Part shown: one piece after another, positions 4,847 to 39,697 of the stretch | How the letters are laid out: each line of letters begins with the position of its first letter | Position numbering within the stretch: position 1 is the first letter of the stretch | Source of the DNA: an uncultured Gammaproteobacteria bacterium | GTDB taxonomy: Bacteria; Patescibacteriota; Patescibacteriia; UBA11705; DATKZF01 | Length of the DNA stretch: 64,000 nt | Reading direction: 5' to 3' | NCBI GenBank assembly: GCA_964411255.1 | Contig: CAYPKD010000002.1 | Location: 98,141 to 162,140, forward strand | Made by a program: the position numbers and the translations under genes | The notes under the pieces: generated by a model | Databases searched by the model: none | What the model was told of the DNA's origin: nothing | Seen by the model: the letters and a program-made list of their open reading frames with translations, nothing else

Positions 4847-5266
4847 ATGAGACATAGAAAAAAAGGAAAAACGTTAGGCAGGAAAGCAGGACCTCGCAAG
4901 GCAATGATGAGAAGCTTGGCGACTAGTTTAGTAATGCATGGAAAAATCAAAACTACTGAAACAAAAGCAAAAGAATTAAGGCCGATTATAGAAAAACATA
5001 TTACTGCTGCCAGAAAAAATAATTTAGCTGTTAGACGTAAATTATTGGGCTACTATTACAAGGAATCTGCAGTGAATACATTATTAGAAGAACTGGGCCC
5101 ATTATACAGTAAAAGAAAGGGCGGCTATACCAGGATTATTAAAGCTGGTACTCGTCAGGGCGATGCTGCCAGAATGGCCTTAATTGAATTAATCGATTAT
5201 AAAAAGAAAAAAGTGGAGAAAAAGGATGCTGTTAAAAAAAATGATAGTAAAGAAAAGAAAAAGTAA
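4847..5266 (+). CDS. rplQ: 50S ribosomal protein L17
   Basis: MRHRKKGKTLGRKAGPRKAMMRSLATSL L17 signature. Confidence 0.95.
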   Translation: MRHRKKGKTLGRKAGPRKAMMRSLATSLVMHGKIKTTETKAKELRPIIEKHITAARKNNLAVRRKLLGYYYKESAVNTLLEELGPLYSKRKGGYTRIIKAGTRQGDAARMALIELIDYKKKKVEKKDAVKKNDSKEKKK

Positions 5267-12491: not shown

Positions 12492-12911
12492 ATGGCAGAA
12501 GAAAAAAAGACTGAGGAAAAAAAAGACGTAGAAGTTCCAGAGAAATTTAAAAAATTAGTTGATGAAATTGAAAAAATGTCAATTTTAGATTTGTCTGAAT
12601 TAGTAAAAATTTTAGAAGAAAAATTTGGCGTATCAGCTGCTGCTCCAGTGGCTGCCATGGCCGCTGCTCCTGCTGCAGGAGAAGATGCTGCTGAAGAAAA
12701 ATCAGAATATGATGTTGAATTAGCAGGTGCAGGTGAAAATAAAATTGCAGTTATCAAGGTGGTGAAAGAAATTGCCGGCATTGGATTAAAAGACGCTAAA
12801 GATTTAGTTGACGGTGCACCAAAAGTTGTTAAGGAAAAAGTAAAGAAAGAGGAAGCTGAAGAAATGAAGAAAAAGCTTGAAGAAGCTGGCGCAACAGTAA
12901 ATTTGAAATAA
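12492..12911 (+). CDS. rplL: 50S ribosomal protein L7/L12
   Basis: Ala-rich hinge [16 protein letters not shown] and C-terminal [28 protein letters not shown]. Confidence 0.95.
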
Positions 12912-13094: not shown

Positions 13095-16000
13095 ATGCCG
13101 AAAATGGCCAGAAATTACGCATATTATGATTGCTGGCAAAAGGCTAGTATAGCTCTATTAATACTTGATATTCGAAGCAAAGAGGAATATGAAAATCGTT
13201 ATGAAGAGGATTCTTGTCTGCCAATTGATCCAGAAAAATTTTATCCGGGTTTTCCAGGTTGGGACCAATTTCTTGCTCAGGAAGAATTAGCTGTTCCAAA
13301 AGAACTTTCAGACAGAGCTGAACCTGAAAAAGAAAAGATTCAAAGGCCAGAAAGATATGCTACCTGGCAGCAAGCCAGTGAAGCTGTAAAGGTGCTTGGA
13401 ATTAAAAGTAGGACTCAATATAATAGAAGATATAGAGAAGATCCAATGCTGCCATCATCTCTTAATAACTCTTATCCAGATTTTCCTGGAGCAGAAATAT
13501 TTTTTGGTGTAAAAAATGAAGGGAAAAGAAAAAAGAATTTTTATCCTACATGGCAGCAAGCAAGTCAGGCAGTTCAGAAATTAGGTGTTAAAAGTTCATC
13601 ACATTATTTGAGGTCGTATAAACAAGATGATAGGCTGCCTTCTGCTCCACGCACATACTATAAAGATTTTCCCGGCTGGGATAAATTTTTAGGAAGAGAT
13701 GAAGTTAAAAAAGAGCAAATTCAGCCACCTGAAAGATATGCTACTTGGCAGCAAGCCAGTGAAGCAGTAAAAAAACTTGGCATTACAAGTTGGCATCAAT
13801 ATCACAGGCGGTATAGAGAAGATCCAAAGCTTGGTTCAAATCCAAATATTTTATATGAAGATTTTCCTGGAGCTGAAATTTTCTTTGGAGTAAAACGAAA
13901 ACCCAGGAAGAAAAAGAATTATTATTCCAGTTGGCAGGAAGCAGGCAAAGCAGCACAGATGCTGGGTATTAAGAGCTCACTTCAATATGTTCGCAAATAC
14001 AAACAAGATATCAGATTGCCTTCAAATCCAAATGTTAAATATAAAGATTTTCCAGGCTGGGATGTATTTTTAGGCAAAGCAGAAATTGAAGAGCAAACTG
14101 TTGAGACAGAATATTATGCCACCTGGCAGCTGGCCAGCAAGGCAGCTGTCAATCTTGGTATTAAAAGTCTTGTTAGCTATTGCTCAGGTGCGTATATGGA
14201 AGATGATAAATTGCATCCAGATCCGCAGACATTTTATGAAGACTTTCCTGGTTGGAAAAAGTTTTTGGGAATTAAGGGAAAAAAGAAAAAAGGGAATGAA
14301 AAAAAATACTCAACTTGGCAGGAAGCAAGTATGGCTGCTAAAAAGTTAGGTATTAAAACATCTACCCAATACTGTATAGAAAAAAGATATAAGCAGGACT
14401 TGAGATTGCCATCCAGTCCTCAAACCTATTATTCAGATTTCCCAGGCTGGGGTGTCTTTTTAGGAACGCATGAAGTAAAAGGCGCTGCAGTGGCTAGAAG
14501 GAAGAAAAAAAAGTATCCCACTTGGCAGCAAGCAAGCAAAGCAGCTCGAAGACTTGGGATCAGCAGCTCGACTGAATATATGCGTGGGAAAGCATATAAA
14601 AAAGATTCACTTCTACCATCAAATCCGCAACAGTATTATCATGATTTTCCAGGCTGGGGTGAATTTTTAGGAACAAATAATAAGCGAGGTGCACCTAGAA
14701 AAAATTTTTATCCTACTTGGCAGCAGGCAAGAAATGCAGCATTGAAGCTGGGGATCACCGCTTCCACTGGATATATCAATGCAGAACAGTATAAGTTTGA
14801 CCGACGATTGCCTTCTAACCCTCAGCTCTATTACGAAGATTTTCCTGGTTGGAAAAAATTTTTAACTCCAGAAGTTAAAAGTGTAGAAATAACTGATCAA
14901 ATGGCTGCATCTATTGAAAAAGGATTAGATAAGAAAGATGGATTTGCTTCACAAAAGAGTAGTGATGTAAAAAGGCCTAAAAATGGATATTATGAGGACT
15001 GGGAAACTGCCTCTCGTGCTGCAATAAAGCTTGGTATTACGACTCAAGAGCAGTATGAAAATAATTGTCATAAAGATTCTAGATTGCCGAAAAAACCAAA
15101 GCTTTGTTATTCTGAGTTTAAGGATTGGGATGAATTTGAAAAAATGGCTCAAAATGAATATTATTCTACTTGGCAGGAAGCTAGCGAAGCAGTTCAAAAC
15201 ATGGGAATTAAATCCTGGAGTGAATATTCTGTACGGCAGAACGAAGATGAAATGTTACCTTTGCATCCTGACAAAGAATATGAAGATTTCCCAGGATGGA
15301 GAATTTATCTTGGAAAAGAAAATGATACTCAAAATGGTTTAAGTTACAAAAAAGACAAAAGAAAGAGTGGCAAGAATTTATATCCTACTTGGAAAGAAGC
15401 AAGCAAGATCGTGAGAGAAATGGGTATAAAGACTTCTAAACAATATCGAGACAGGTATAAAGAAGATCCAAGGCTGCCATCAACTCCTGAGAGATATTAT
15501 AAAGATTTCCCAGATTGGGATAAATTTTTTGTCAGAGAAAAAAATAAAAAATACACTACTTGGCAAGAGGCCAGTGAGGCTGCACGAAAATTGAATATAA
15601 AAAGGCGGGAAGATTATTTCAAAGAATATGAGAGAGATCCTAGGTTACACAAATATCCAGCAGACATATATAAAGATTTTCCAGGATGGCGCGTTTTTCT
15701 TAATAATAGAAGACCTCGCTATGCTACCTGGCAGGAAGCAAGTCAGGCAACAATTAGATTAGAAATTTCCAGCCGAGACGAATATTTGAAAAGATATACA
15801 GAAGATGAGAAGTTAAGGTGTGCTCCATATCAAGTATATGAAGATTTTCCAGGATGGAGAGTTTATTTGGGCAAAGCTGAGAAGGAATCAAAGGAAGATA
15901 AAGAACAAGAGAGAACAGGGGATGATAATGTGAGTAAGCGAAGAAAACGGGAAGATATGTATCAAACCTGGCAAGAAGCTGCAGTAGCAGCTCAAAAGGT

Positions 16001-17522
16001 TGGAATAAAAAGCGAAAAAGAATATAGAAAAAGATATAAATCTGATCAAAAGTTGCCTAGCTCTCCAGAAACAATATATTTAGATTTTCCAGGTTATGGA
16101 ATTTTTTTAAGCAATGTGAGTAAACGAAGAAAACGGGAAAATATGTATCCTACCTGGCAAGAAGCTGCAGTAGCAGCTCAAAGATTGGGAATAAAAAATA
16201 GAAGAGATTATGGAAAAAAATACAAACTTAATCAAAGGCTACCCTGTGACCCTTCCAGCGTTTATATGAATTTTCCAGGTTATGAAATTTTTTTAGGTAA
16301 TGTAGGTAAGCGAAGAACACGGAAAAACTTATATCAAACCTGGCAAGAAGCTTCAGCAGCAACTCAGAGGCTTGGAATAAAAACTCAAATAGAATATAGA
16401 AAGAGGTATAAATCTGATCAAAAGTTGCCTAGCTCTCCAGACACATTATATTTTGATTTTCCAGGATGGCGAGTTTATTTAGGAAAAGTTGATAAAGAAT
16501 TAAATGAAACCGAAAAAACAGACAGAACAGGAGGTGACGATGTGAGTAAACGCAGAAAACGGCAAGACTTATATCAAACCTGGCAGGAAGCAGCCGTGGC
16601 TGCTCATAGGCTGGGAATAAAAAGCAGAAGCGAATATAGAAAGAAATATAGGTCTAATCAAAAATTGCCTGGAGCTCCTGACAACTTCTACAAGGATTTC
16701 CCCGGATGGAAAGTGTTTTTAGATGAAACTTCTTTAAATTACTATCCAACCTGGCAGGAAGCCAGTGAGTCTGCGCAGAAGTTGAAGATTCAAACCAGTA
16801 CAGAATATGAACAAAGGTATAATTTGAACAGCCGATTGCCAGCTGATCCTTCTGTCTACTATAAAGATTTTCCAGGTTGGATTATCTTTCTAAACGTAGA
16901 GAAAAAGGATTATTATCTTACCTGGCAGGAAGCCAGCGCAGCAGCGCAGAAAATGATGATTTTTAGTGAAAGCCAATATAAAATGGTTTATAAGGCTGAT
17001 CCAAGGTTGCCTTCAACTCCAGATAAGTTTTATGATGATTTTCCCAGTTGGTTGATATTTTTAGGCAAAGTTGATGCAGATTCATTAGTATTAATGCCGC
17101 ATGAAAAAATGGTAAAGCCAAATTATGATCAAATGGTTGAAATGCTTGAGGGAACAAATAAGTTTTTACCAGTTAATGAATTATTCAGATATTCGGGGAT
17201 AATATTAGCAAGTAAATCTGATACAGCCGTTGATGATATGATGCTCGATTTGTTGCGGGTTAAAATAACTACAGCAATTTATAAAGTATTTGAGATCAAC
17301 ATGTGTTCAGTTGAGGTGAAAAAGTATGATGATAAGTATCGCATTGACATTGTGTTTGGCAAGCTTCAAGTTGGAGCAACATCTGTCAGCACTGAAGTGC
17401 AGATACCGCTAGGATTTCCGCATAATGCTGTATTGTATTTAGAGGCGATTGATCCTGTCCTAAAGCAAGAATTACCAGATTTTGAGTTTAATGAAATAGT
17501 GGTTTTCATAGGTGAGTCATGA
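13095..17522 (+). CDS. giant repeat protein: ~20 tandem ~55-aa repeats (TWQEAS-A--KLGIK...Y...Y-D-RLPS-P--Y-DFPGW--FLG) plus a ~150-aa C-terminal domain shared with the 17748 gene
   Basis: 1475-aa ORF; repeats read directly from the translation; repeat resembles the integrase repeat unit with conserved LPS motif (Pfam Integrase_1-like, recalled from memory, unverified). Confidence 0.85.
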   Translation: MPKMARNYAYYDCWQKASIALLILDIRSKEEYENRYEEDSCLPIDPEKFYPGFPGWDQFLAQEELAVPKELSDRAEPEKEKIQRPERYATWQQASEAVKVLGIKSRTQYNRRYREDPMLPSSLNNSYPDFPGAEIFFGVKNEGKRKKNFYPTWQQASQAVQKLGVKSSSHYLRSYKQDDRLPSAPRTYYKDFPGWDKFLGRDEVKKEQIQPPERYATWQQASEAVKKLGITSWHQYHRRYREDPKLGSNPNILYEDFPGAEIFFGVKRKPRKKKNYYSSWQEAGKAAQMLGIKSSLQYVRKYKQDIRLPSNPNVKYKDFPGWDVFLGKAEIEEQTVETEYYATWQLASKAAVNLGIKSLVSYCSGAYMEDDKLHPDPQTFYEDFPGWKKFLGIKGKKKKGNEKKYSTWQEASMAAKKLGIKTSTQYCIEKRYKQDLRLPSSPQTYYSDFPGWGVFLGTHEVKGAAVARRKKKKYPTWQQASKAARRLGISSSTEYMRGKAYKKDSLLPSNPQQYYHDFPGWGEFLGTNNKRGAPRKNFYPTWQQARNAALKLGITASTGYINAEQYKFDRRLPSNPQLYYEDFPGWKKFLTPEVKSVEITDQMAASIEKGLDKKDGFASQKSSDVKRPKNGYYEDWETASRAAIKLGITTQEQYENNCHKDSRLPKKPKLCYSEFKDWDEFEKMAQNEYYSTWQEASEAVQNMGIKSWSEYSVRQNEDEMLPLHPDKEYEDFPGWRIYLGKENDTQNGLSYKKDKRKSGKNLYPTWKEASKIVREMGIKTSKQYRDRYKEDPRLPSTPERYYKDFPDWDKFFVREKNKKYTTWQEASEAARKLNIKRREDYFKEYERDPRLHKYPADIYKDFPGWRVFLNNRRPRYATWQEASQATIRLEISSRDEYLKRYTEDEKLRCAPYQVYEDFPGWRVYLGKAEKESKEDKEQERTGDDNVSKRRKREDMYQTWQEAAVAAQKVGIKSEKEYRKRYKSDQKLPSSPETIYLDFPGYGIFLSNVSKRRKRENMYPTWQEAAVAAQRLGIKNRRDYGKKYKLNQRLPCDPSSVYMNFPGYEIFLGNVGKRRTRKNLYQTWQEASAATQRLGIKTQIEYRKRYKSDQKLPSSPDTLYFDFPGWRVYLGKVDKELNETEKTDRTGGDDVSKRRKRQDLYQTWQEAAVAAHRLGIKSRSEYRKKYRSNQKLPGAPDNFYKDFPGWKVFLDETSLNYYPTWQEASESAQKLKIQTSTEYEQRYNLNSRLPADPSVYYKDFPGWIIFLNVEKKDYYLTWQEASAAAQKMMIFSESQYKMVYKADPRLPSTPDKFYDDFPSWLIFLGKVDADSLVLMPHEKMVKPNYDQMVEMLEGTNKFLPVNELFRYSGIILASKSDTAVDDMMLDLLRVKITTAIYKVFEINMCSVEVKKYDDKYRIDIVFGKLQVGATSVSTEVQIPLGFPHNAVLYLEAIDPVLKQELPDFEFNEIVVFIGES

Positions 17523-17547
17523 CTTAATAAGTCGTGGCTTTTTTATT
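17516..17547 (+). terminator. intrinsic terminator after the 1475-aa gene
   Basis: GTCATGACTTA-ATA-AGTCGTGGC hairpin (with G-U pairs) followed by TTTTTTATTTG; near-identical terminator after the paralogue at 19863. Confidence 0.5.
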
Positions 17548-17747
17548 TGTAAAAACAGATCAACCCCTCGACTTCGCTCGGGGCAGGCAGATCAGCAACA
17601 GATATAAAACTTTATCAAAAAGGTGAGTTATTTGACTAAATTTAGGTAAATTTTATTAAAACAACTATAATATTGACAAAATAATAAAAATAGGCTAAAC
17701 TCTAATGTTACTGATATTTGACAAATTACGCATTCAGGAGGAAAAGA

Positions 17748-19862
17748 ATGCCAAAGACGCAGAAAAAGAGCAGAAAAAGCAAAGCAGATTTTTACCCAAC
17801 CTGGCAGGAAGCAGGTGCAGCAGCACAGAAATTAGGTATACGTACTTTGGGCGAGTATAATATTCGTTATCATGAAGATCCTCGTTTGCCATCAAACGCT
17901 TATGAGGTTTACGGTGAAGATTTCCCTGGAATGAAGGTTTTTCTGGGTGAAGCTTATAAGCCAAGAAATCGGAGTGTGAAAAGGCACTTTTACCGAACGT
18001 GGAAAGAAGCAGCGCAAGGAGCTGCTAATTTGGGCATTATGTCCAGAAGGCATTATAGCGGTAAATACCGTGATGATCCTTGGCTGCCTTCTCAGCCACA
18101 TCGCCAGTATAAGGATTTCCCTGGCTGGGATGAGTTCATGAGAACTGTCCAGCAGATTCGGGAAGAAAATGCCAAGAAAGAGGGTAAGATTGTCAAAAAG
18201 GATTATTATCCCACTTGCAAGCAGGCAAGTGACGCTGCCCAAAAGCTTGGCATCATGTCGCTTCGCGAATATCAAAGGCGTTATAAAGAAGATCCTCGTT
18301 TGCCTTCAACTCCTTCTGTCAAGTACAAAAATTTCCCAGGCTGGATTATTTTTCTTGGCAAAGACAAGGATGTCGCAGAAGAAAAATCGAAGAAGGATAA
18401 GCCTAAGCAGGATACGCCTAAGCTTGATAAACCCAAACTGGACAAGCCTAAGCAGGATAAGATCAAGAGGCGTAAAAATTATTTGACCTGGCAAGAAGCT
18501 GCAAAAGCAGTTGCTAAGCTGAATATCACCAGTATGCCAGAATACCAGAAACGCTGGAAAGAAGATCCTCGTCTGCCTGGCAATTTGTATGGCAGTTATA
18601 AGGACTTTCCTGGTACTGAAAAGTTCTTTGGCTTTGCAGCTTCTATCAAAGAGGCAGAATCAGAGCCAGAGGAAAATATGGCTGAGCCTGAAGAGGTAGA
18701 GGCTGCAACGTATTCAACTTGGCAGGCTGCTGCAGAAGCAGCAGCTGAGCTGGATATTATGACTCGTGAAGAGTACATAAAGGCTCATAGTGAAGATCCA
18801 AAATTGCCTGCTGACCCTGAAGCAGATTATGAGGATTTTCCTGGCTGGGACACTTTCTGTCAGTCTGCTGAAAAAGCCAGTACTGCGCAAAAGTCTGCTC
18901 CAAAGAAAAAGGGAAAGAAAAAGATCTACCAATCTTGGAAAGCTGCCAGTAGAGCCTGCCGAAGACTTGGCATCACCACTCGAGCTGAATATTTGAAAAG
19001 GTATAAAGAAAATCCCATGCTGCCTTCTCATCCTGAGAGAAGTTATAGGGATTGGCCAGGCTGGTCTGCTTTTTTCAATGGCGAGAGAGAAAGCAGGCCC
19101 AGGTTCCCGCCCAGAAGGAAATTCTATCCGACCTGGCAGGAAGCTCGAGAAGCTTGTCGTCGGCTGGATATTAGGGAACGCAAAGAATATGTAATTAGGT
19201 ACAGAGAAGATGAATTTCTTAACTCCAAACCTGAGCGATATTACGAGGATTTTCCTGGCTGGGATATCTTTCTTGCTCCAGTAGGAAAAGATCCGGCTGA
19301 AAAGGCTGCTAAGCCTACAAAGGCAAAGAAGCCTGAAAAGGCCGTATCGAAAAAGGCAACACCGAAAAAGGCTAAGCCCAAGGCAGTTGAGCCAGCTGAT
19401 CAGCCTGAAAAGGTTGAGGCAGAGCCTGGTGAAAAAGCAAAGAGCAAATTGGATTGGTTTGAGACTCTGGCTGAACCCTTGGCTGCAATAGAAGACTGGG
19501 ATGGTCAGCTGCTAACTTTACCGCCAAATTGGGTTTTTGTCTATTCAGGGGTTTTCAAGGCCGTTTCTGATGTAATGCTTGATGAACTGCTGTTGCAAAA
19601 TGCACGTTTGCAGATCATCATGAGCATGCACAAGGTATTTGGCCTGAATTTCTGTGAGGCAAATATCAGAAAAATCAAGGATGATTATCGACTTGATATT
19701 TCCTTTGCCAATATCTCAGGCAAAGGTGTTAATACCAATTTGGTACGCCCACTAGGCTATCCGTATTCAAGTATTCTGTTCACTGAAGTCATTCAGAAAG
19801 TGGCAGAAGAAGATTTTTCAGACTTTGTATTTTGGGAATGTTTGGTTTTCACCAAACGATAA
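17748..19862 (+). CDS. repeat protein paralogue (7 repeats, Pro/Lys-rich linkers, same C-terminal domain as the 13095 gene)
   Basis: the ORF track starts at a TTG at 17718; the ATG at 17748 follows an AGGAGG RBS; C-terminal ~150 aa align with the C-terminus of the 1475-aa protein; codon usage is visibly more GC-rich than neighbours. Confidence 0.8.
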   Translation: MPKTQKKSRKSKADFYPTWQEAGAAAQKLGIRTLGEYNIRYHEDPRLPSNAYEVYGEDFPGMKVFLGEAYKPRNRSVKRHFYRTWKEAAQGAANLGIMSRRHYSGKYRDDPWLPSQPHRQYKDFPGWDEFMRTVQQIREENAKKEGKIVKKDYYPTCKQASDAAQKLGIMSLREYQRRYKEDPRLPSTPSVKYKNFPGWIIFLGKDKDVAEEKSKKDKPKQDTPKLDKPKLDKPKQDKIKRRKNYLTWQEAAKAVAKLNITSMPEYQKRWKEDPRLPGNLYGSYKDFPGTEKFFGFAASIKEAESEPEENMAEPEEVEAATYSTWQAAAEAAAELDIMTREEYIKAHSEDPKLPADPEADYEDFPGWDTFCQSAEKASTAQKSAPKKKGKKKIYQSWKAASRACRRLGITTRAEYLKRYKENPMLPSHPERSYRDWPGWSAFFNGERESRPRFPPRRKFYPTWQEAREACRRLDIRERKEYVIRYREDEFLNSKPERYYEDFPGWDIFLAPVGKDPAEKAAKPTKAKKPEKAVSKKATPKKAKPKAVEPADQPEKVEAEPGEKAKSKLDWFETLAEPLAAIEDWDGQLLTLPPNWVFVYSGVFKAVSDVMLDELLLQNARLQIIMSMHKVFGLNFCEANIRKIKDDYRLDISFANISGKGVNTNLVRPLGYPYSSILFTEVIQKVAEEDFSDFVFWECLVFTKR

Positions 19863-19891
19863 GTCATGATTTAATTAATCGTGGCTTTTTT
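19863..19891 (+). terminator. intrinsic terminator after the 704-aa paralogue
   Basis: GTCATGATTTA-ATT-AATCGTGGC hairpin plus TTTTTTATTATTTG. Confidence 0.5.
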
Positions 19892-20056
19892 ATTATTTGT
19901 TACAAGATAATACCCTTCGACCTCTCGACCCCGCTCGAGGCAGGCAAGCTCAGGGCAGGCAAGATTGGAATATGATTATTTTATTTGCTGTGTATGCCCC
20001 GAATAAATGACCCGAATGAAATTACTACAGATATCCCGGATTACTGATCCTGATGC

Positions 20057-20085
20057 TTGACAATTTTATTAAAATATATTATTAT
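20057..20085 (+). promoter_or_regulatory. promoter of the mini repeat gene (TTGACA / TATTAT) with upstream CCCCGAAT / CCGAATG motifs at 19997-20018
   Basis: TTGACA 20057-62, 17-nt spacer, TATTAT 20080-85. Confidence 0.35.
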
Positions 20086-20125
20086 GATTTAACTCAATCA
20101 ACCCACCAGGACAAGGGAGGTAAAT

Positions 20126-20329
20126 ATGTCAAGAAATGGTGAAAATACGGATTGGAGCTGGCAAGAAGCCAGTGAAGCAGCTCAAAAGCTGGGCATTGAA
20201 ACCAGGGATGAATACAGAAGCCGAACACCGCATCATGGATTGCCAGATGATCCTGTTGCTGAATTTTCCAACTTTCCGCGAAAGTCAAATGGCGAACCTA
20301 ATTGGGAGTTATTTTTAGGAGTAAAATAA
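20126..20329 (+). CDS. 67-aa protein consisting of a single copy of the repeat module
   Basis: SWQEASEAAQKLGIETRDEY...LPDDPVAEFSNFP...WELFLG; GGGAGG RBS 8 nt upstream; own terminator. Confidence 0.6.
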   Translation: MSRNGENTDWSWQEASEAAQKLGIETRDEYRSRTPHHGLPDDPVAEFSNFPRKSNGEPNWELFLGVK

Positions 20330-20330
20330 A

Positions 20331-20359
20331 ATCCACTAGACAAAACTAGCGGATTTTTT
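20331..20359 (+). terminator. intrinsic terminator
   Basis: ATCCACTAG-ACAAAA-CTAGCGGAT hairpin plus TTTTTTATTTG. Confidence 0.55.
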
Positions 20360-20427
20360 ATTTGTTACGGATACCCCGAATGTTCTGACTTTTTATTCGA
20401 ATGACCTGAATATTATTAATTGTTAAT

Positions 20428-20456
20428 TTGACAAGAATGACGAAAACTGTTAAAGT
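20428..20456 (+). promoter_or_regulatory. promoter of the helicase gene with upstream CCCCGAATG at 20375
   Basis: TTGACA 20428-33, 17-nt spacer, TAAAGT. Confidence 0.3.
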
Positions 20457-20491
20457 TTGATATTGTTTCATTGACAATCAAGGAGCAAATC

Positions 20492-22294
20492 ATGTTTGAA
20501 CTATATGACTATCAGAAACGGCAATTAAAGGCAATTAATAAAGCATTTGAAACTACAATGCGAGCATTAATGGTAATGGCCAGCGGTTTGGGAAAAACTG
20601 TTGTTGCCGCATTTTGGGCAAAAGATCAGGTCCAAAATGGAAAAATGCTTTTCCTCTGCCATGAGAACGAAATTCTTGCTCAGGCATTGAGTATTTTTAG
20701 GCAAGTGCTAGGTGAAACTGTTTCGCTTGGCGTATTTACTGGCCAGCAAAAAGACTATGAAGAAGTTGATGTACTTTTTGCTTCTTTCCAGACAATGCGT
20801 GAATGGAAACAAGCCTTTTTCCCAAATGAGTTTGCCACTATCATTGTAGATGAATCTCATCATGGCCAAGCGCCGACCTACAAAGAGGTAATAGAATATT
20901 TTACTCCTCAAAAGCTTTTTGGCATGACAGCCACACCAGATCGAATGGATGAAAAAGACATTCGTGAGATTTTTGGTGATGAGGTTGTTAATCTATCGCT
21001 TGAAGAAGGCATTGCCAAAGGCTGGCTAACGCCAGTTGAATATTATGTAATGAATGATGGGCTGAATACCAAGGTTCTGCGAGAAATCGTTGATAGAGTA
21101 TTAAAAAAAGGTGAGCGTATTTCAATTAAACAACTCAATGAAACCATTTTTATTAAAGCTCGGGATGAAGAGATCGCTCGAATCATTCAGGGGCGTGGCA
21201 GAAAGACAATTATTTTCTGTGAGCGCATTGAGCATGCAGAAGAATTTGTTCAGCATTTGCCAAAAGCAGAGTGTTTTCACTCTTGTAAAAGTGCACATCA
21301 CAATGAACTTGTTTTGAAGGCTTTCCGAGATGGAACACTGCAATATATTTTAGCAGTTGATAAATTCAATGAAGGAATTGACATTCCTGATGCTGAAATG
21401 GTTGTGTTCCTGCGCTGTACAGACTCAAGAACTGTCTTTTTGCAGCAGTTGGGCAGGGGATTGCGAAAGATTGAGGGTAAGGATAATGTTGTAGTCCTTG
21501 ATTTTGTTGCTAACTGTGAACGGCTAAAAATAGTTAGAGATATGGCCGGAAGAGTAAAATCAATGGCTAACGGCCAGGCTTTGTGTGAAGATGTGCTAAA
21601 GGTTTCAGGCAAAGCATTTGATTTTCTATTCACTGATAAACAGCAGGATATTTTTACAATTCTTGAAACAATCAAGCCTCGATATATCTCAGATATCCCG
21701 CATCTTTTGGCTGAATATTCAGATAAAAACGAATTGCCGCCAGAGCAAGTGAGTGCCGGCACATCCAAAAATCTGTGGTGGAAATGTCAAAAAGTGAAAT
21801 GTGGATATGAATGGCAGGTTAGTGGGAATTGTAGAATATCTAAAGTGACAGGATGCCCCGCCTGTGCTAATCGTATTGCCACTTTAAACAATAGTTTGGC
21901 GGTAACTCATCCAGAATTAGCAGAAGAATATTCTGATAAAAATCAGTTCACTGTTGATGAGGTAGTTGCAGGCACAAGAAAAAAGTTGTGGTGGAAATGT
22001 AAAACATGCAATCATGAATGGCAGGCAGCAGGAGATAGAAGGGTTCACGGAACAGGCTGCCCAGTTTGCGCAATAAAAAGAACAATAGAAAAACGCAGAA
22101 AGAAATTTTTTCAGACTTGGCAGGAATCTAGTCGATTGGCAATATCCTTAGGAGTAAAAAATTGGCATGAGTATAGAAATATGTATAAAAAGGATCCAAG
22201 ATTGCCTTCTGTTCCACAAACATTTTATTTAAATTTTCCTAAAAAGCCAAACGGCCGTCCTGATTGGGATTTGTTTTTTGGGAGGAAAAAATAA
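20492..22294 (+). CDS. SF2 DExH-box helicase (ResIII / type-III restriction res-subunit-like N-terminus plus Helicase_C) fused to two zinc-ribbon modules and one C-terminal copy of the repeat module
   Basis: motifs GLGKT (I), DESHH (II), TATP (III), QQLGRGLR (VI); two repeats of LAEYSDKN...WWKC-K-C-GYEWQ...GCP-C (recalled as DUF4379-like zinc ribbon); final 60 aa TWQESSRLAISLGVKNWHEY...LPSVP...FLNFP...WDLFFG; ATG 20492 (RBS AAGGAG) preferred over the TTG at 20471. Confidence 0.85.
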   Translation: MFELYDYQKRQLKAINKAFETTMRALMVMASGLGKTVVAAFWAKDQVQNGKMLFLCHENEILAQALSIFRQVLGETVSLGVFTGQQKDYEEVDVLFASFQTMREWKQAFFPNEFATIIVDESHHGQAPTYKEVIEYFTPQKLFGMTATPDRMDEKDIREIFGDEVVNLSLEEGIAKGWLTPVEYYVMNDGLNTKVLREIVDRVLKKGERISIKQLNETIFIKARDEEIARIIQGRGRKTIIFCERIEHAEEFVQHLPKAECFHSCKSAHHNELVLKAFRDGTLQYILAVDKFNEGIDIPDAEMVVFLRCTDSRTVFLQQLGRGLRKIEGKDNVVVLDFVANCERLKIVRDMAGRVKSMANGQALCEDVLKVSGKAFDFLFTDKQQDIFTILETIKPRYISDIPHLLAEYSDKNELPPEQVSAGTSKNLWWKCQKVKCGYEWQVSGNCRISKVTGCPACANRIATLNNSLAVTHPELAEEYSDKNQFTVDEVVAGTRKKLWWKCKTCNHEWQAAGDRRVHGTGCPVCAIKRTIEKRRKKFFQTWQESSRLAISLGVKNWHEYRNMYKKDPRLPSVPQTFYLNFPKKPNGRPDWDLFFGRKK

Positions 22295-22367
22295 ATTCCC
22301 TTAGTAAAACTAAAGGGAATTTTTTTTAAATTTTATTGTTAATCAACCTACCAATCTACCAATCTCG

Positions 22368-24500
22368 TTATAAGTGTTTAAGATTAATTGAAATAATTTT
22401 TTGACCATCTATCAAATAAATCTTTCTATTTCCCTCATCCACTGCCATATCTGAAACAGACTGGGCATTTTCAATCTGATATTGGATTACCACCAGACCA
22501 TTTTTGCCATAAACAATAACTCTGTTTGTGTTTTTGTCTAAAACATAAATATAACTTGAATCAACATCAGTATATATCTTGCTTGCGCTTTCAATCTTTG
22601 GCTCAATGTTTTGAGCAGAAAAGCTCTGCTTATCTCCGCTAAGGAATTTTTGGATTGTACCATTTGAACTCAATACATAAATATCGCCATCAATGGCCAT
22701 TGAAGTGGCGCTGCTAAAATCTGCTGCGTCATTTACCCAGCTAGCTGGAGGACCATAAGAATTTGACCCAACATTTCTGAGTTTATAGATCTGATTATCA
22801 GCAGGTGATAAAAAGTAAAGATGAGTGTTGTATACGTAAAAATCAGTCCATGAGCCCTCTGAATCCAGACTTACTTTTTCAAATTGATCATTATCAGTAG
22901 AGTATTGATATAGACTATTATTTTCAAATAATATATATAAAGTTTGATCATCAAAAGCAAACTGGCTTAAAACATTTGCGTTTATATTAGTTTCCACTGT
23001 AGATAAAATTTGCGCTGAAGATAAATTAATGGAATTAAGATTGTTTTGATCAGATACGATTAGGATTTGATCGTTTAAAACCTGCAGCTTCATTGAATCC
23101 TGGTTTAGATTGGCTAAAGTAATAAGATCTTGCGCCTGAACTGATTCAAGCTTTAATAGTTTATTATTTAAAGCCTTGTATTGATTCTCAAGTTTTACAA
23201 TATTTTGATTTTCCTCTTCAGATTCTTTTGGTAGTTTTGAAATCAAATCTTTTACTTCAGCCATTAAATTTAAGCTTTTATCAGTATTTCTGAATAAGAA
23301 AGCAGCTTCAGCCTGATTTAATTTGGTTTCAATTGCTTTAATTGAGCTGTTATATGCTGCATCGTCTTTTTTTGTTTCCTGATTTTTATATATCCAGACT
23401 ATGCTTAAGGCAAAGACTATAACTAATGCAATTATTAAAATTATAATAATTTTTTTTGTTTTTGGAGCCATTGGCTTTTCTTTTTTTTCTGATTTTGATT
23501 CAGTAGTCACTTTTTTTCCTTTTGATATGCCAAGTTTATTGAGAATGCTTTTTATCAAACTTGGAGAGCTTCGTATTTCGTCAACAGCAATACCTTTTGG
23601 TTTTTTTTGTCTGCTAAATATAGATATGAACTTTTTTCCAATATTTTTAAATTTTTGTTTAATATTTATGCCAATTGCTGGGGTGAGAAATTTTTCAGTA
23701 TCCATTTGAGTATTGACCAGCGTATTGATTGATTGCTGGGATGCTTTTTCCTGTTCAATTAATTGAAGATCTTCTTGTTTTATAAAAATAGCAGAAAATG
23801 TTTTGGCATACCCTTGAGGTCTTTTTTGCAAAAGAATTTTAAAATCTTCGATAAGTTCTTTTACTGGTCTGTTTGAAGCTATTTGGTTTATTTTTTCAGC
23901 AGAAAAAAATCTGGCAAATCCTTCATTAGAGATGATTAATGCGTCAGGCAGAAAGATTTTACCAGAAATAATGCTGGCAAAAATTTTGACTTTATTTTCA
24001 GGAGAATTTTCAGATCCAGCTAAAATGTCAATTATTTTATAGTTTGATTTTTTAGTTTTATGGATTAAAAAACTTTGGATATTACCCCGATGGCTGAATA
24101 TTATATCAGATTCAATATTGCTTGGCTTTATCACAGCCACTAAAAAGTTAATATTTTCTAAAATTAGCTGAATTTGGCCATTTTGTATCAATTGGAGCAC
24201 TTTTTCATTGGTTTTTTGAAGCGCATGTTCAAAAACTGTCTCTAAATTCAATTTTTGCGGATCAGGAGAGGTAACGATTTGCCTGTAATAATGGTCTTTT
24301 AAGCTGGAAATTATGGTATTTGAGATTTTCTGTCCATGCTCAGTGGGGGTAGCATTAATTTCAATAATTCCTAAAACATGGCCGCCAAATTTTTCTTTGC
24401 CATCTGGGAAAATAATAAAATTTTCACAAAAATAATCATTTTGCACTTGATTTGAAGGAAGAAATATTTCTTCAATCCTTAGTGCTTTTTGTTTGTCCAT
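22368..24500 (-). CDS. hypothetical membrane protein: N-terminal cytoplasmic domain, one TM helix, coiled coil, C-terminal beta-propeller-like repeats
   Basis: 710-aa ORF; TM segment IIIILIIALVIVFALSIVWIY; Gln/Leu-rich heptads; C-terminal repeated IYVLD / IYLID-type strands. Confidence 0.65.
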   Translation of the reverse strand: MDKQKALRIEEIFLPSNQVQNDYFCENFIIFPDGKEKFGGHVLGIIEINATPTEHGQKISNTIISSLKDHYYRQIVTSPDPQKLNLETVFEHALQKTNEKVLQLIQNGQIQLILENINFLVAVIKPSNIESDIIFSHRGNIQSFLIHKTKKSNYKIIDILAGSENSPENKVKIFASIISGKIFLPDALIISNEGFARFFSAEKINQIASNRPVKELIEDFKILLQKRPQGYAKTFSAIFIKQEDLQLIEQEKASQQSINTLVNTQMDTEKFLTPAIGINIKQKFKNIGKKFISIFSRQKKPKGIAVDEIRSSPSLIKSILNKLGISKGKKVTTESKSEKKEKPMAPKTKKIIIILIIALVIVFALSIVWIYKNQETKKDDAAYNSSIKAIETKLNQAEAAFLFRNTDKSLNLMAEVKDLISKLPKESEEENQNIVKLENQYKALNNKLLKLESVQAQDLITLANLNQDSMKLQVLNDQILIVSDQNNLNSINLSSAQILSTVETNINANVLSQFAFDDQTLYILFENNSLYQYSTDNDQFEKVSLDSEGSWTDFYVYNTHLYFLSPADNQIYKLRNVGSNSYGPPASWVNDAADFSSATSMAIDGDIYVLSSNGTIQKFLSGDKQSFSAQNIEPKIESASKIYTDVDSSYIYVLDKNTNRVIVYGKNGLVVIQYQIENAQSVSDMAVDEGNRKIYLIDGQKIISINLKHL

Positions 24501-31789: not shown

Positions 31790-32545
31790 ATGATAGAGCA
31801 AGCTAAATCTAGGAAAATTGGTCTTATCGTTTCCATCATTTTGGTAATAATGTGGATTGTTGTAGCAATTATTGACAGTGTAACGGTTTCTGCACAGAAA
31901 AAGAAGATTCTGGATCTCTGGAAGCAGAAGGAGGATCTACAAACAGATCTTCAGAAGCAGAAGGAGGATCTACAAACAGATCTTCAGAAGCAGAAGGAGG
32001 ATCATCAGGCAAGATATGATTTTGCCATTGGAAAGTTCAGAGAAACCATTAAGAGCGCATCTTTTATCCTTGCAAAATCAGGCCTGGAATTGCCTGAAAA
32101 GTGTTGGGTAAAAAGAAATTTTGAAGTGAATGACGAGCATAACATGCTTGAGATCATTCAGGATTTGTTGGATTGTATTGATTCTGCAATGGAGATGTCA
32201 GAAGATATCAGGGATAATTTGGTAATAAAATTGACTAATACGCAAATTGAGCTGCTCGAGGCTCAAATGAGTCTGAAGCTAATCACCAAATCGTATGAAA
32301 AATGCGAAACCATGGCTAAAGGCGGAACTCATGTATATAAGAAGGCAACAGCCAAGCGCTGGCGTGCCAGTGCATTCCGGTGGAAAAATCAGGTTCAAGG
32401 TCTTGAAGAACAAGTTGAAACCTTGAAGAGAGAAAATGAAGCATTGAGAAATAATCGAAAACCCAGAGTACAAGCACCAGTGCCACATAAGACTCCAAGA
32501 TCATTGGATATACAAGAAAATGATCAAAGGGGTTGTTCAAAATAA
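31790..32545 (+). CDS. membrane-anchored coiled-coil protein with in-frame 33-bp tandem repeat
   Basis: TM helix at residues 10-30; LQTDLQKQKED repeated 2.5 times; 251 aa. Confidence 0.65.
   Translation: MIEQAKSRKIGLIVSIILVIMWIVVAIIDSVTVSAQKKKILDLWKQKEDLQTDLQKQKEDLQTDLQKQKEDHQARYDFAIGKFRETIKSASFILAKSGLELPEKCWVKRNFEVNDEHNMLEIIQDLLDCIDSAMEMSEDIRDNLVIKLTNTQIELLEAQMSLKLITKSYEKCETMAKGGTHVYKKATAKRWRASAFRWKNQVQGLEEQVETLKRENEALRNNRKPRVQAPVPHKTPRSLDIQENDQRGCSK
31921..31999 (+). repeat. 33-bp tandem repeat (GAAGCAGAAGGAGGATCTACAAACAGATCTTCA) x2.4 inside the CDS
   Basis: two perfect copies plus a partial third, read directly. Confidence 0.85.
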
Positions 32546-33025: not shown

Positions 33026-33457
33026 ATGTTTATCGGCGAGTATCAACATAACCTTGATCAAAAAGACAGGCTGGCTGTGCCTGTTAAGTTTAGAGCTAAA
33101 TTAAAGCAGGGTGCTGTTGTCACTCGCGGATTAGATAATTGTTTATTTCTATACCCGCAAGCTGAGTGGAAAAAGTTAGCTGAAAAGCTGGCCTCATTGC
33201 CAATCAGCAAATCAAATACCAGGGCATTCAGTCGGTTTATGCTCTCTGGAGCAATGGATGTAAATGTTGACAAGCAGGGAAGAATAAAGCTGCCGGATTA
33301 TTTAAAAAAATTTGCAGGTATGAAAAAGACCGTTATCGTTGCCGGGCTATATAATCGTTTAGAGCTTTGGGATAAGGAATCATGGAATAAATATAAACAG
33401 GGTACTGAAAAGGCAAGTACAGATATAGCTGAGGAATTAGAAAATCTTGATGTCTAG
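33026..33457 (+). CDS. mraZ: transcriptional regulator MraZ
   Basis: MFIGEYQHNLDQKDRLAVPVKFR... tandem MraZ domain sequence, 143 aa. Confidence 0.9.
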   Translation: MFIGEYQHNLDQKDRLAVPVKFRAKLKQGAVVTRGLDNCLFLYPQAEWKKLAEKLASLPISKSNTRAFSRFMLSGAMDVNVDKQGRIKLPDYLKKFAGMKKTVIVAGLYNRLELWDKESWNKYKQGTEKASTDIAEELENLDV

Positions 33458-36385: not shown

Positions 36386-36877
36386 CTTTATGGTATAATT
36401 AGTAACAGAGAAACAAAGAAATTTATAAAAAGATATATTACATGTCTAATACAATTTTTCGTTTTAGAGAATTCCCTGTATATAACGATGCCAGGAAATT
36501 TAGAGCAGATTTGAAAAAATTATCAAAAGAAAAATTTCCTTCAGAAGAACAATACATTTTAAGAAGACAGCTTTGGCGAGCATTAGATTCAATAATATTA
36601 AATATTGCAGAGGGAGCAGATAAGCATTCTGATAAGGATTTCAGTCATTATCTAAATCATGCTCTTGGATCAATTAATGAAGTTATCGGATGCTTAGATT
36701 GCGCCTTAGATGATTATTATATTGAAATCACTGAACATAAAAGGTATTTAGAACAAGCTGAAAACATTATTAAACAATTAAAAGCATTTATTTCCAAGCT
36801 TAGAAAAGATGATAAACGTTTTTAGTTTTTATTTGTGTTTCTTTGTTTCTATGTGCTTTTGTTAATTTTATGCCAAA
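36386..36877 (+). repeat. ~0.5-kb direct duplication, copy 1 (promoter plus four-helix-bundle gene plus 5' end of next gene)
   Basis: near-identical to 39193-39697 (few substitutions, one 16-bp tandem insertion in copy 2). Confidence 0.9.
36442..36825 (+). CDS. four-helix-bundle protein (23S rRNA IVS protein / Avd-like family)
   Basis: LDSIILNIAEGADKHSDKDFSHYLNHALGSINEV matches the family core motif (NIAEG...S.KDF); extended -10 TATGGTATAAT at 36388-36398. Confidence 0.7.
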   Translation: MSNTIFRFREFPVYNDARKFRADLKKLSKEKFPSEEQYILRRQLWRALDSIILNIAEGADKHSDKDFSHYLNHALGSINEVIGCLDCALDDYYIEITEHKRYLEQAENIIKQLKAFISKLRKDDKRF

Positions 36878-39192: not shown

Positions 39193-39697
39193 TTTATGGT
39201 ATAATTAGTAACAGAGAAACAGAAGAACAGAGAAACAAAGAAATTTTTAAAGATATATAACATGTCTAATACTATTTTTCGTTTTAGAGAATTCCCTGTA
39301 TATAAGGATGCCAGGAAATTTAGAGCAGATTTGAAAAAATTATCAAAAGAAAAATTTCCTTCAGAAGAACAATACATTTTAAGAAGACAGCTTTGGCGAG
39401 CATTAGATTCAATAATATTAAATATTGCAGAGGGAGCAGATAAGCATTCTGATAAGGATTTCAGTCATTATCTAAATCATGCTCTTGGATCAATTAATGA
39501 AGTTATCGGATGCTTAGATTGCGCCTTAGATGATTATTATATTGAAATCACTGAACATAAAAGGTATTTAGAACAAGCTGAAAACATTATTAAACAATTA
39601 AAAGCATTTATTTCCAAGCTTAGAAAAGATGATAAACGTTTTTAGTTTTTATTTGTGTTTCTTTGTTTCTATGTGCTTTTGTTAATTTTATGCCAAA
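39193..39697 (+). repeat. ~0.5-kb direct duplication, copy 2
   Basis: see copy 1; contains an extra GAAGAACAGAGAAACA tandem insertion. Confidence 0.9.
39262..39645 (+). CDS. four-helix-bundle protein (Avd-like), second copy
   Basis: identical to the 36442 product except N15K. Confidence 0.7.
   Translation: MSNTIFRFREFPVYKDARKFRADLKKLSKEKFPSEEQYILRRQLWRALDSIILNIAEGADKHSDKDFSHYLNHALGSINEVIGCLDCALDDYYIEITEHKRYLEQAENIIKQLKAFISKLRKDDKRF

Follow-up and report, generated by a model that had tools for sequence, protein, structure and literature searches.

In a 64,000-nt stretch of DNA from a low-GC Patescibacteria genome of the candidate phyla radiation (contig CAYPKD010000002.1 of assembly GCA_964411255.1, forward strand, positions 98,141–162,140; hereafter the window), one gene, encoding a 704-amino-acid (aa) protein at positions 17748–19862 on the + strand, was markedly richer in G+C (GC) than the window as a whole. 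With moderate confidence, we favor the view that this gene is an old, partly ameliorated xenologue that came from a GC-richer relative of the same clade and was later reshuffled by homologous recombination. The superfamily 2 (SF2) helicase gene further downstream was not part of such an import. The 704-aa gene occupies a variable slot directly 3' of rplL, where it is preceded by the gene for a 1475-aa paralogue (13095–17522, +) and followed by the genes for a 67-aa protein (20126–20329, +) and the helicase (20492–22294, +). A preliminary description of this DNA had proposed a recent joint gain of the 704-aa gene and the helicase, which would form a second copy of a system beside a resident copy that had already ameliorated.

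The computed GC of the window was 0.344. Compared with non-overlapping windows of equal length (0.340 ± 0.023, maximum 0.393), the GC of the 704-aa gene was 0.444 (z 4.5), and its GC at third codon positions (GC3), 0.403, was the top value among 51 open reading frames (ORFs), the rest ranging from 0.18 to 0.38. We also calculated the synonymous GC3 expected from the window's own codon frequencies in 47 background genes, with amino acid content controlled. The observed value was 0.375 and the expected value 0.238 (z 8.5), where the z values of the background genes had a standard deviation of 1.34 and a maximum of 3.8. Within the gene, synonymous GC3 was 0.376 in the repeats and 0.374 in the C-terminal domain, and the linkers were alike. 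GC peaked at 0.45–0.47 between 18.0 and 19.5 kb in a 1-kb profile, and a 200-bp profile rose at ~17.70–17.75 kb and fell at ~19.6–19.9 kb. The limits of the peak coincide with this one ORF, and the excess is gene-wide, with sharp edges in AT-rich intergenic DNA. In terms of codons, the gene avoids those ending in A: AAG (0.54 versus 0.25 in the window), CAG (0.72 versus 0.40), CTG (0.34 versus 0.09), ATC (0.44 versus 0.10) and GGC were raised and TTA was rare (0.05 versus 0.42), with usage of GAT and AAT unchanged.

The shift had been described as extending from ~17.75 to 22.3 kb. The span 17700–22320 indeed showed a high GC (0.412, z 4.2), solely because the 704-aa gene lies inside it. The helicase gene had a GC of 0.392 and a synonymous GC3 of 0.285 against 0.247 expected (z 2.2), and its GC-normalized dinucleotide and tetranucleotide signatures fell at about the 50th percentile; the synonymous GC3 of the 1475-aa gene gave a z of 0.3. 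The helicase is compositionally native, and so is the codon usage of the 1475-aa gene, which had been taken for the resident copy. The GC of the 67-aa gene was 0.438, and its codons are too few for the synonymous test. The GC and codon calculation, named beforehand as a potential refutation, thus placed the 704-aa gene significantly above the window, and the claimed shift stood for this gene but not for the helicase.

Both large proteins consist of INT_rpt units (PF14882; gathering threshold 26.5 bits) followed by a domain of ~140–150 aa that has no Pfam match. By a repeat hidden Markov model, the 1475-aa protein (342.8 bits against PF14882) has 21 units and a C-terminal domain of ~150 aa, and the 704-aa protein (100.8 bits) has seven units, Pro/Ala/Lys-rich linkers and a C-terminal domain of ~138 aa; the 67-aa protein and the helicase C-terminus each have one unit. 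Note that 704 aa is the length counted from the ATG chosen by gene callers, and that an upstream TTG would give 714 aa. In the repeat units, GC at the first, second and third codon positions was 0.527/0.450/0.373 in the 704-aa gene and 0.453/0.404/0.288 in the 1475-aa gene; the values for the C-terminal domain were 0.50/0.312/0.406 and 0.50/0.253/0.307, respectively, and the arginine fraction R/(R+K) in the repeat units was 0.57 versus 0.41. Because all three codon positions and R/K usage are shifted in homologous parts of the two genes, a long stay under a higher-GC regime is suggested. Clade relatives with higher GC exist, namely L016, a locus of the distant relative Patescibacteria MAG187 (GC 0.423, GC3 0.484), and locus L012 (GC 0.369, GC3 ~0.36). 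The C-terminal domains of the 704-aa and 1475-aa proteins are each other's best match (35–36% identity, 85.9 bits, E 4e-27) and are 27–35% identical to standalone proteins of relatives. A xenologue is preferred because the two domains are about as distant from each other as from the domains of relatives, and a resident duplicate of that age would be expected to show native GC, as the 1475-aa gene does. The 704-aa copy would have spent a long period in a clade member with a GC-richer genome, would then have come into the slot as one more copy of the same unit, and would have shed only part of its GC excess afterwards.

The timing of such an entry is constrained by a sister lineage, represented by locus L006, which is ~89% identical to the window in nucleotide sequence over the whole region (84–90% for the homologue of the 1475-aa gene, 89.6% for the orthologue of the 704-aa gene, 88% for the mini-gene corresponding to the 67-aa gene, and 89.2% for the convergent 710-aa gene that flanks the slot). 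The L006 orthologue of the 704-aa protein has 711 aa, and its gene has a GC of 0.441 and a GC3 of 0.402, where the flanking genes in L006 have a GC3 of 0.24–0.29. Since the orthologue carries the same GC excess and has diverged to the same extent as its flanks, any acquisition predates the split between the window lineage and L006, and the acquisition cannot have been recent as proposed earlier. Among the relatives, the gene is present in L006 and is missing only from the far more distant L016. The ratio of nonsynonymous to synonymous divergence (dN/dS) between the window and L006 copies was 0.22, indicating purifying selection and therefore a functional gene; since any such entry, the copy has been inherited together with its flanks under this constraint (dN/dS ~0.22).

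Divergence from L006 is mosaic. The block at 18870–19874 (+), which comprises repeats 6–7, the last linker and the C-terminal domain, is 99% identical to L006, with 10 mismatches in ~1 kb and a synonymous divergence (dS) of 0.011 in the C-terminal domain, and the stretch just 5' of position 18870 is ~82% identical. The 3' end of the 1475-aa gene (16.9–17.4 kb) is 94–98% identical, the dS of its C-terminal-domain region being 0.148 versus 0.46 for the 710-aa flank, and shorter stretches of high identity occur in the 710-aa gene, including 22.5–22.8 kb. This pattern points to recent homologous exchange between two co-occurring lineages, in which the 3' part of the 704-aa gene would have been swapped between them. 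The allelic ~1-kb block is the sole event that is both recent and horizontal.

The same exchanges bear on the main rival explanation, to which we assign a modest probability, namely that an in-situ tandem duplication was followed by GC-biased gene conversion, which at a frequently recombining locus raised and maintained the GC of the 704-aa gene. Lassalle et al. (2015) reportedly described such biased conversion at recombination hot spots of bacteria. The 704-aa gene resembles such hot spots in that its raised GC3 coincides with recent recombination between lineages inside the gene. The mutual best match of the two C-terminal domains also fits this explanation, as do the near-identical terminator common to both genes, the restriction of the domain to the clade, the interleaving of the repeats in a tree, and GC-normalized signatures that are not clearly foreign (see below). 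On the other hand, the other low-divergence blocks (16.9–17.4 and 22.5–22.8 kb) show no comparable rise in GC, and within the 704-aa gene the divergent 5' half matches the recombined 3' half in GC richness. Furthermore, first and second codon positions and amino acid usage, which conversion alters only slowly, are shifted, and usage of GAT and AAT is unchanged while other codon families move strongly, unlike what a uniform weak-to-strong (W→S) drive would produce.

It is also conceivable, if quite improbable, that the composition is under selection and that no transfer took place, with selection acting through Ala/Pro/Arg-rich linkers and repeats or through codon choice, for example for expression or mRNA structure. 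The Pro/Ala/Lys-rich linkers, which the preliminary description had noted as missing from the 1475-aa paralogue, are indeed seen in the translations, the gene is under purifying selection, and it favors CTG, GGC, ATC, TTC, CGT, ACT and GCT. These codons resemble the 'optimal' sets of many bacteria. Selection of this kind does not agree with the equal synonymous GC3 excess in repeats, linkers and C-terminal domain, or with the native codon usage of a paralogue built from the same repeat family. Moreover, AAC and GAC are not favored, and the ribosomal protein genes of the window do not take the codons favored by the 704-aa gene, the GC3 of rplL being 0.20.

Several results weigh against a xenologous origin. 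The GC-normalized signatures of the 704-aa gene are not clearly foreign: its dinucleotide delta* was 106, the 91st percentile of same-size windows, and its tetranucleotide z-score correlation, a check proposed in the preliminary description, was 0.305, the 34th percentile, both measures having low power at 2.1 kb. A codon log-likelihood ratio for the 704-aa gene favored the window model over an L016 model, and the gene takes GCT and CCT where L016 takes GCC, GCG and CCG; this codon-usage likelihood test was not in favor of an L016-like donor. No donor was found, the best matches to the 704-aa protein outside the clade having ~36% identity and covering repeats only. When 1.84 billion representative proteins were searched with a profile of the C-terminal domain, only five matched. 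Two came from L006, two were standalone proteins of 133 and 123 aa, and the fifth matched the linker alone; the four with the domain trace to the window's own lineage, its sister, or loci with the same neighboring genes (rplL upstream or a 710-aa homologue). A scan of metagenome DNA with the same domain yielded the L006 contig and nothing further. The C-terminal domain is thus restricted almost only to a small clade, and no distant donor is visible, the closest homologue of the 704 domain being the adjacent 1475 domain. In a tree, units from the two paralogues are intermixed, their identity being 0.49 within and 0.48 between proteins. The dS of the divergent 5' part of the gene (0.37) was not above that of the flank (0.46), where rapid amelioration would predict a higher value. 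Note that P0125 (locus L015) is the same DNA as L006, so that two lineages only were compared, with no outgroup to polarize substitutions. Finally, mobility genes and tRNA genes are absent from the window, and the sole direct repeat flanking the 704-aa gene is a conserved terminator.

This terminator is an intrinsic-terminator hairpin that overlaps the stop codon, at 17515–17547 (+) for the 1475-aa gene and at 19862–19894 (+) for the 704-aa gene, the two being identical at 30 of 33 nt. Recognizably related hairpins are found after the domain genes that stand alone in L012 (460–490) and L014 (610–635), suggesting that the stop-overlapping hairpin belongs to the ancestral gene unit. The 33-nt direct repeat was therefore rejected as an attachment (att) site, being present as a terminator after the standalone genes as well. 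These standalone genes lie in the same slot, directly 3' of rplL in L014 and abutting a 710-aa homologue of 61% identity in L012, both contigs being too short for the whole slot. A phage or mobile-element origin was likewise rejected: phage and viral collections gave no matches, the 64-kb window has no tRNA genes, and a Pfam scan of four proteins of the locus (1475-aa, 704-aa, helicase and 710-aa) gave no integrase domain. Among PADLOC defence models, the 1475-aa, 704-aa, 67-aa and 710-aa proteins had no match, and the helicase motor alone matched generic motor models (type IV mREase, PbeA and type I R).

In the Lawrence and Ochman model, atypical horizontally acquired genes are said to ameliorate gradually. 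The 704-aa gene is like such genes in that its GC and codons are far from those of the host, three codon positions are shifted, and its compositional boundaries are sharp and intergenic. It is unlike them in having no mobility genes, tRNA genes or att-like repeats and in having its homologues within the same small clade, the closest one next door; in addition, its anomaly is common to the sister lineage and so is not recent, and its GC-normalized signatures are not clearly foreign. Of the earlier proposal, the second, foreign-looking copy beside a resident one is retained, a GC-richer origin being the best single explanation of it, and the recency and the inclusion of the helicase are given up. 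The plausible-looking call of horizontal transfer is corrected to a signal that comes from one gene and is old, beside a helicase inherited vertically.

The helicase has ResIII (109.3 bits), Helicase_C (59.7 bits) and DUF4379 (99.4 bits) matches, all above cut-offs, with two DUF4379 zinc ribbons followed by the one INT_rpt unit. This tail (22097–22291, +) scores 21.8 bits against PF14882, below the gathering threshold, yet aligns with INT_rpt units. More than 3600 homologues were found, the named ones being mostly from Patescibacteria. The gene order in L016 (MurJ, Cu-oxidase_4, GT4, rplJ, rplL, helicase, convergent 710-aa homologue, 206-aa homologue and YkuD) is the same as in the window, but without the array genes. 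Because the L016 helicase lies in the same slot and its 77% aa identity to that of the window is in line with the neighboring core genes (56–82%), vertical inheritance of the helicase is indicated; the next-best homologues have 57–59% identity.

In L006, on the other hand, ~2.0 kb of the window (~20.3–22.3 kb) has no counterpart and the helicase is missing; the small gene there ends at 5182, and ~85 bp of intergenic DNA separate it from the 710-aa gene. The 70-aa L006 mini-gene differs from the 67-aa gene of the window at 13 of 152 positions in the first 155 alignment columns. In the last 51 columns it has 6 mismatches to the helicase tail and 16 to the 67-aa gene. The mini-gene is therefore chimeric, and L006 lost the helicase by recombination between the mini-gene repeat and the helicase-tail repeat, so that the arrangement in the window, with the helicase, is the ancestral one at this site. 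In view of these results, the earlier version of events, in which the 704-aa gene and the helicase arrived recently and jointly as a second system copy, is very improbable. The high raw GC of 17700–22320 is in its favor, as is locus L009, which also has a cassette of INT_rpt array gene, one-repeat mini-gene and helicase with INT_rpt units side by side. Against it are the native composition of the helicase, its synteny in L016, which has no array genes, the presence in L006 of a 704 orthologue at flank-like divergence, and the helicase tail that the L006 mini-gene keeps as a deletion scar.

Two observations concern the helicase gene in near-identical contigs. In locus L002 (JGI 3300018080), 8 of 9 differences from the window over 13.8 kb sit in a 75-bp stretch at helicase motif VI (21395–21468), and two of them are stop codons; they mean either that the helicase is locally inactivated or that the assembly is in error there. 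A single-nucleotide polymorphism in L005 (21440) also falls in motif VI.

An assembly artefact, that is, a chimeric contig joining the DNA of two organisms, has a practically negligible probability. The source is metagenomic, and the short contig of L005 ends in 530 nt of unrelated AT-rich sequence. The exact 704-aa protein, in contrast, recurs on 11 contigs of independent origin (several metagenome assemblies and samples), which have the same junctions and 99.9–100% identity across 13–22 kb; the junctions are also found in L006. Four of the five fetched loci (L001 and L003–L005) were 99.98–100% identical to the window, and with the 11 contigs they rule out a chimera.

The slot is bounded upstream by rplL (12492–12911, +), coding for ribosomal protein L7/L12 (Pfam Ribosomal_L12 on an identical contig; 82% aa identity to the L016 orthologue), and downstream by the conserved 710-aa gene without family match (22368–24500, −), which served as divergence calibrator (dS 0.46 to L006) and has homologues of 61% identity in L012 and 56% in L016. 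In this clade, rplJ–rplL is not followed by rpoB, and the interval from rplL to the convergent 710-aa gene differs between lineages: the helicase stands alone in L016, arrays and mini-gene occur together in L006, and the window combines all three. Each gene of the slot has its own promoter-like site and a hairpin with a T-run as terminator, the 67-aa gene included.

We also modelled the parts of the array proteins. An AlphaFold2 model of the C-terminal domain is an alpha/beta sandwich with a predicted local distance difference test (pLDDT) score of 79.7 and weak ferredoxin-like matches in PDB (template-modelling score ~0.4); the model had no match in BFVD, and the domain profile had none among PDB sequences. 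The INT_rpt unit was predicted with high confidence to be a small helical domain (pLDDT 96), which matched nothing in PDB, and a literature search for INT_rpt or PF14882 found no functional study. Across Patescibacteria, the same helicase family ends in either DUF4379 zinc ribbons or INT_rpt arrays, and hundreds of helicase–INT_rpt fusions were found, annotated as 'integrase repeat-containing protein' or 'DEAD/DEAH box helicase family protein'. The window resembles these fusions in its repeat and helicase families. It differs in that the long arrays (21 and seven units) lie on separate proteins ending in a clade-restricted domain, and the helicase bears only one unit, after the two zinc ribbons. 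Since INT_rpt units replace zinc ribbons at the helicase C-terminus, they are probably nucleic-acid- or partner-binding, and the arrays are predicted, by this analogy, to be multivalent binding modules of that kind that probably act with the helicase.

A broader possibility, which we regard as rather unlikely, is that the slot after rplL is a fast-evolving, lineage-specific hot spot in which the arrays with their orphan domain, the mini-protein and the helicase form one system, perhaps for conflict or DNA surveillance, with domain alleles sweeping across species borders by recombination. Such a hot spot would account for the low divergence of the C-terminal domains (dS 0.011 and 0.148) compared with that of the core flank (0.46), and if it is real, one copy would owe its high GC to repeated exchange between lineages, as a side effect. 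The locus illustrates how genomes change in a streamlined phylum that has been little studied: the slot immediately 3' of rplL varies, a deletion between repeats took out a helicase and left behind a chimeric mini-gene, and lineages ~11% diverged exchanged alleles on a kilobase scale. The compositional finding is in itself ordinary; the uncharacterized architecture of INT_rpt array plus orphan domain is a candidate for biochemistry.

The intergenic DNA of the slot has further features. An insert of ~95 bp, GC-rich and without a counterpart in the sister lineage, where the alignment has a gap (19875–19971, no strand assigned), contains CTCGAGGCAGGCAAGCTCAGGGCAGGCAAG and has a 79% match at an unrelated site in L016 (3772–3859); it may be a small mobile or repetitive extragenic palindromic (REP)-like element. 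CCCGAAT/CCGAAT motifs cluster at 19998–20017 and 20375–20381, just 5' of the sigma-70-like promoters that serve the 67-aa gene and the helicase, and these clusters hold 3 of the 8 copies in the window. Similar clusters were seen in equivalent intergenic DNA of L014 (640–724) and L006 (5220–5265), and such clusters could be a candidate binding site for a regulator.

In the chromosomal surroundings, rplJ and rplL lie upstream of the slot, and MraZ and PBP2/FtsI are encoded elsewhere in the window. Two other genes, a 251-aa ORF without family match (31790–32545, z 3.8) and MraZ (33026–33457, z 2.2), had a moderately raised synonymous GC3, the highest among the background genes. A 300-nt direct repeat of 99% identity, with copies 2.8 kb apart at 36429–36728 and 39249–39548, corresponds to duplicated 127-aa ORFs, and a 198-nt family has three copies, at 36863, 37540 and 38393, with 83–84% identity, suggesting that these repeats belong to a paralogous gene cluster.

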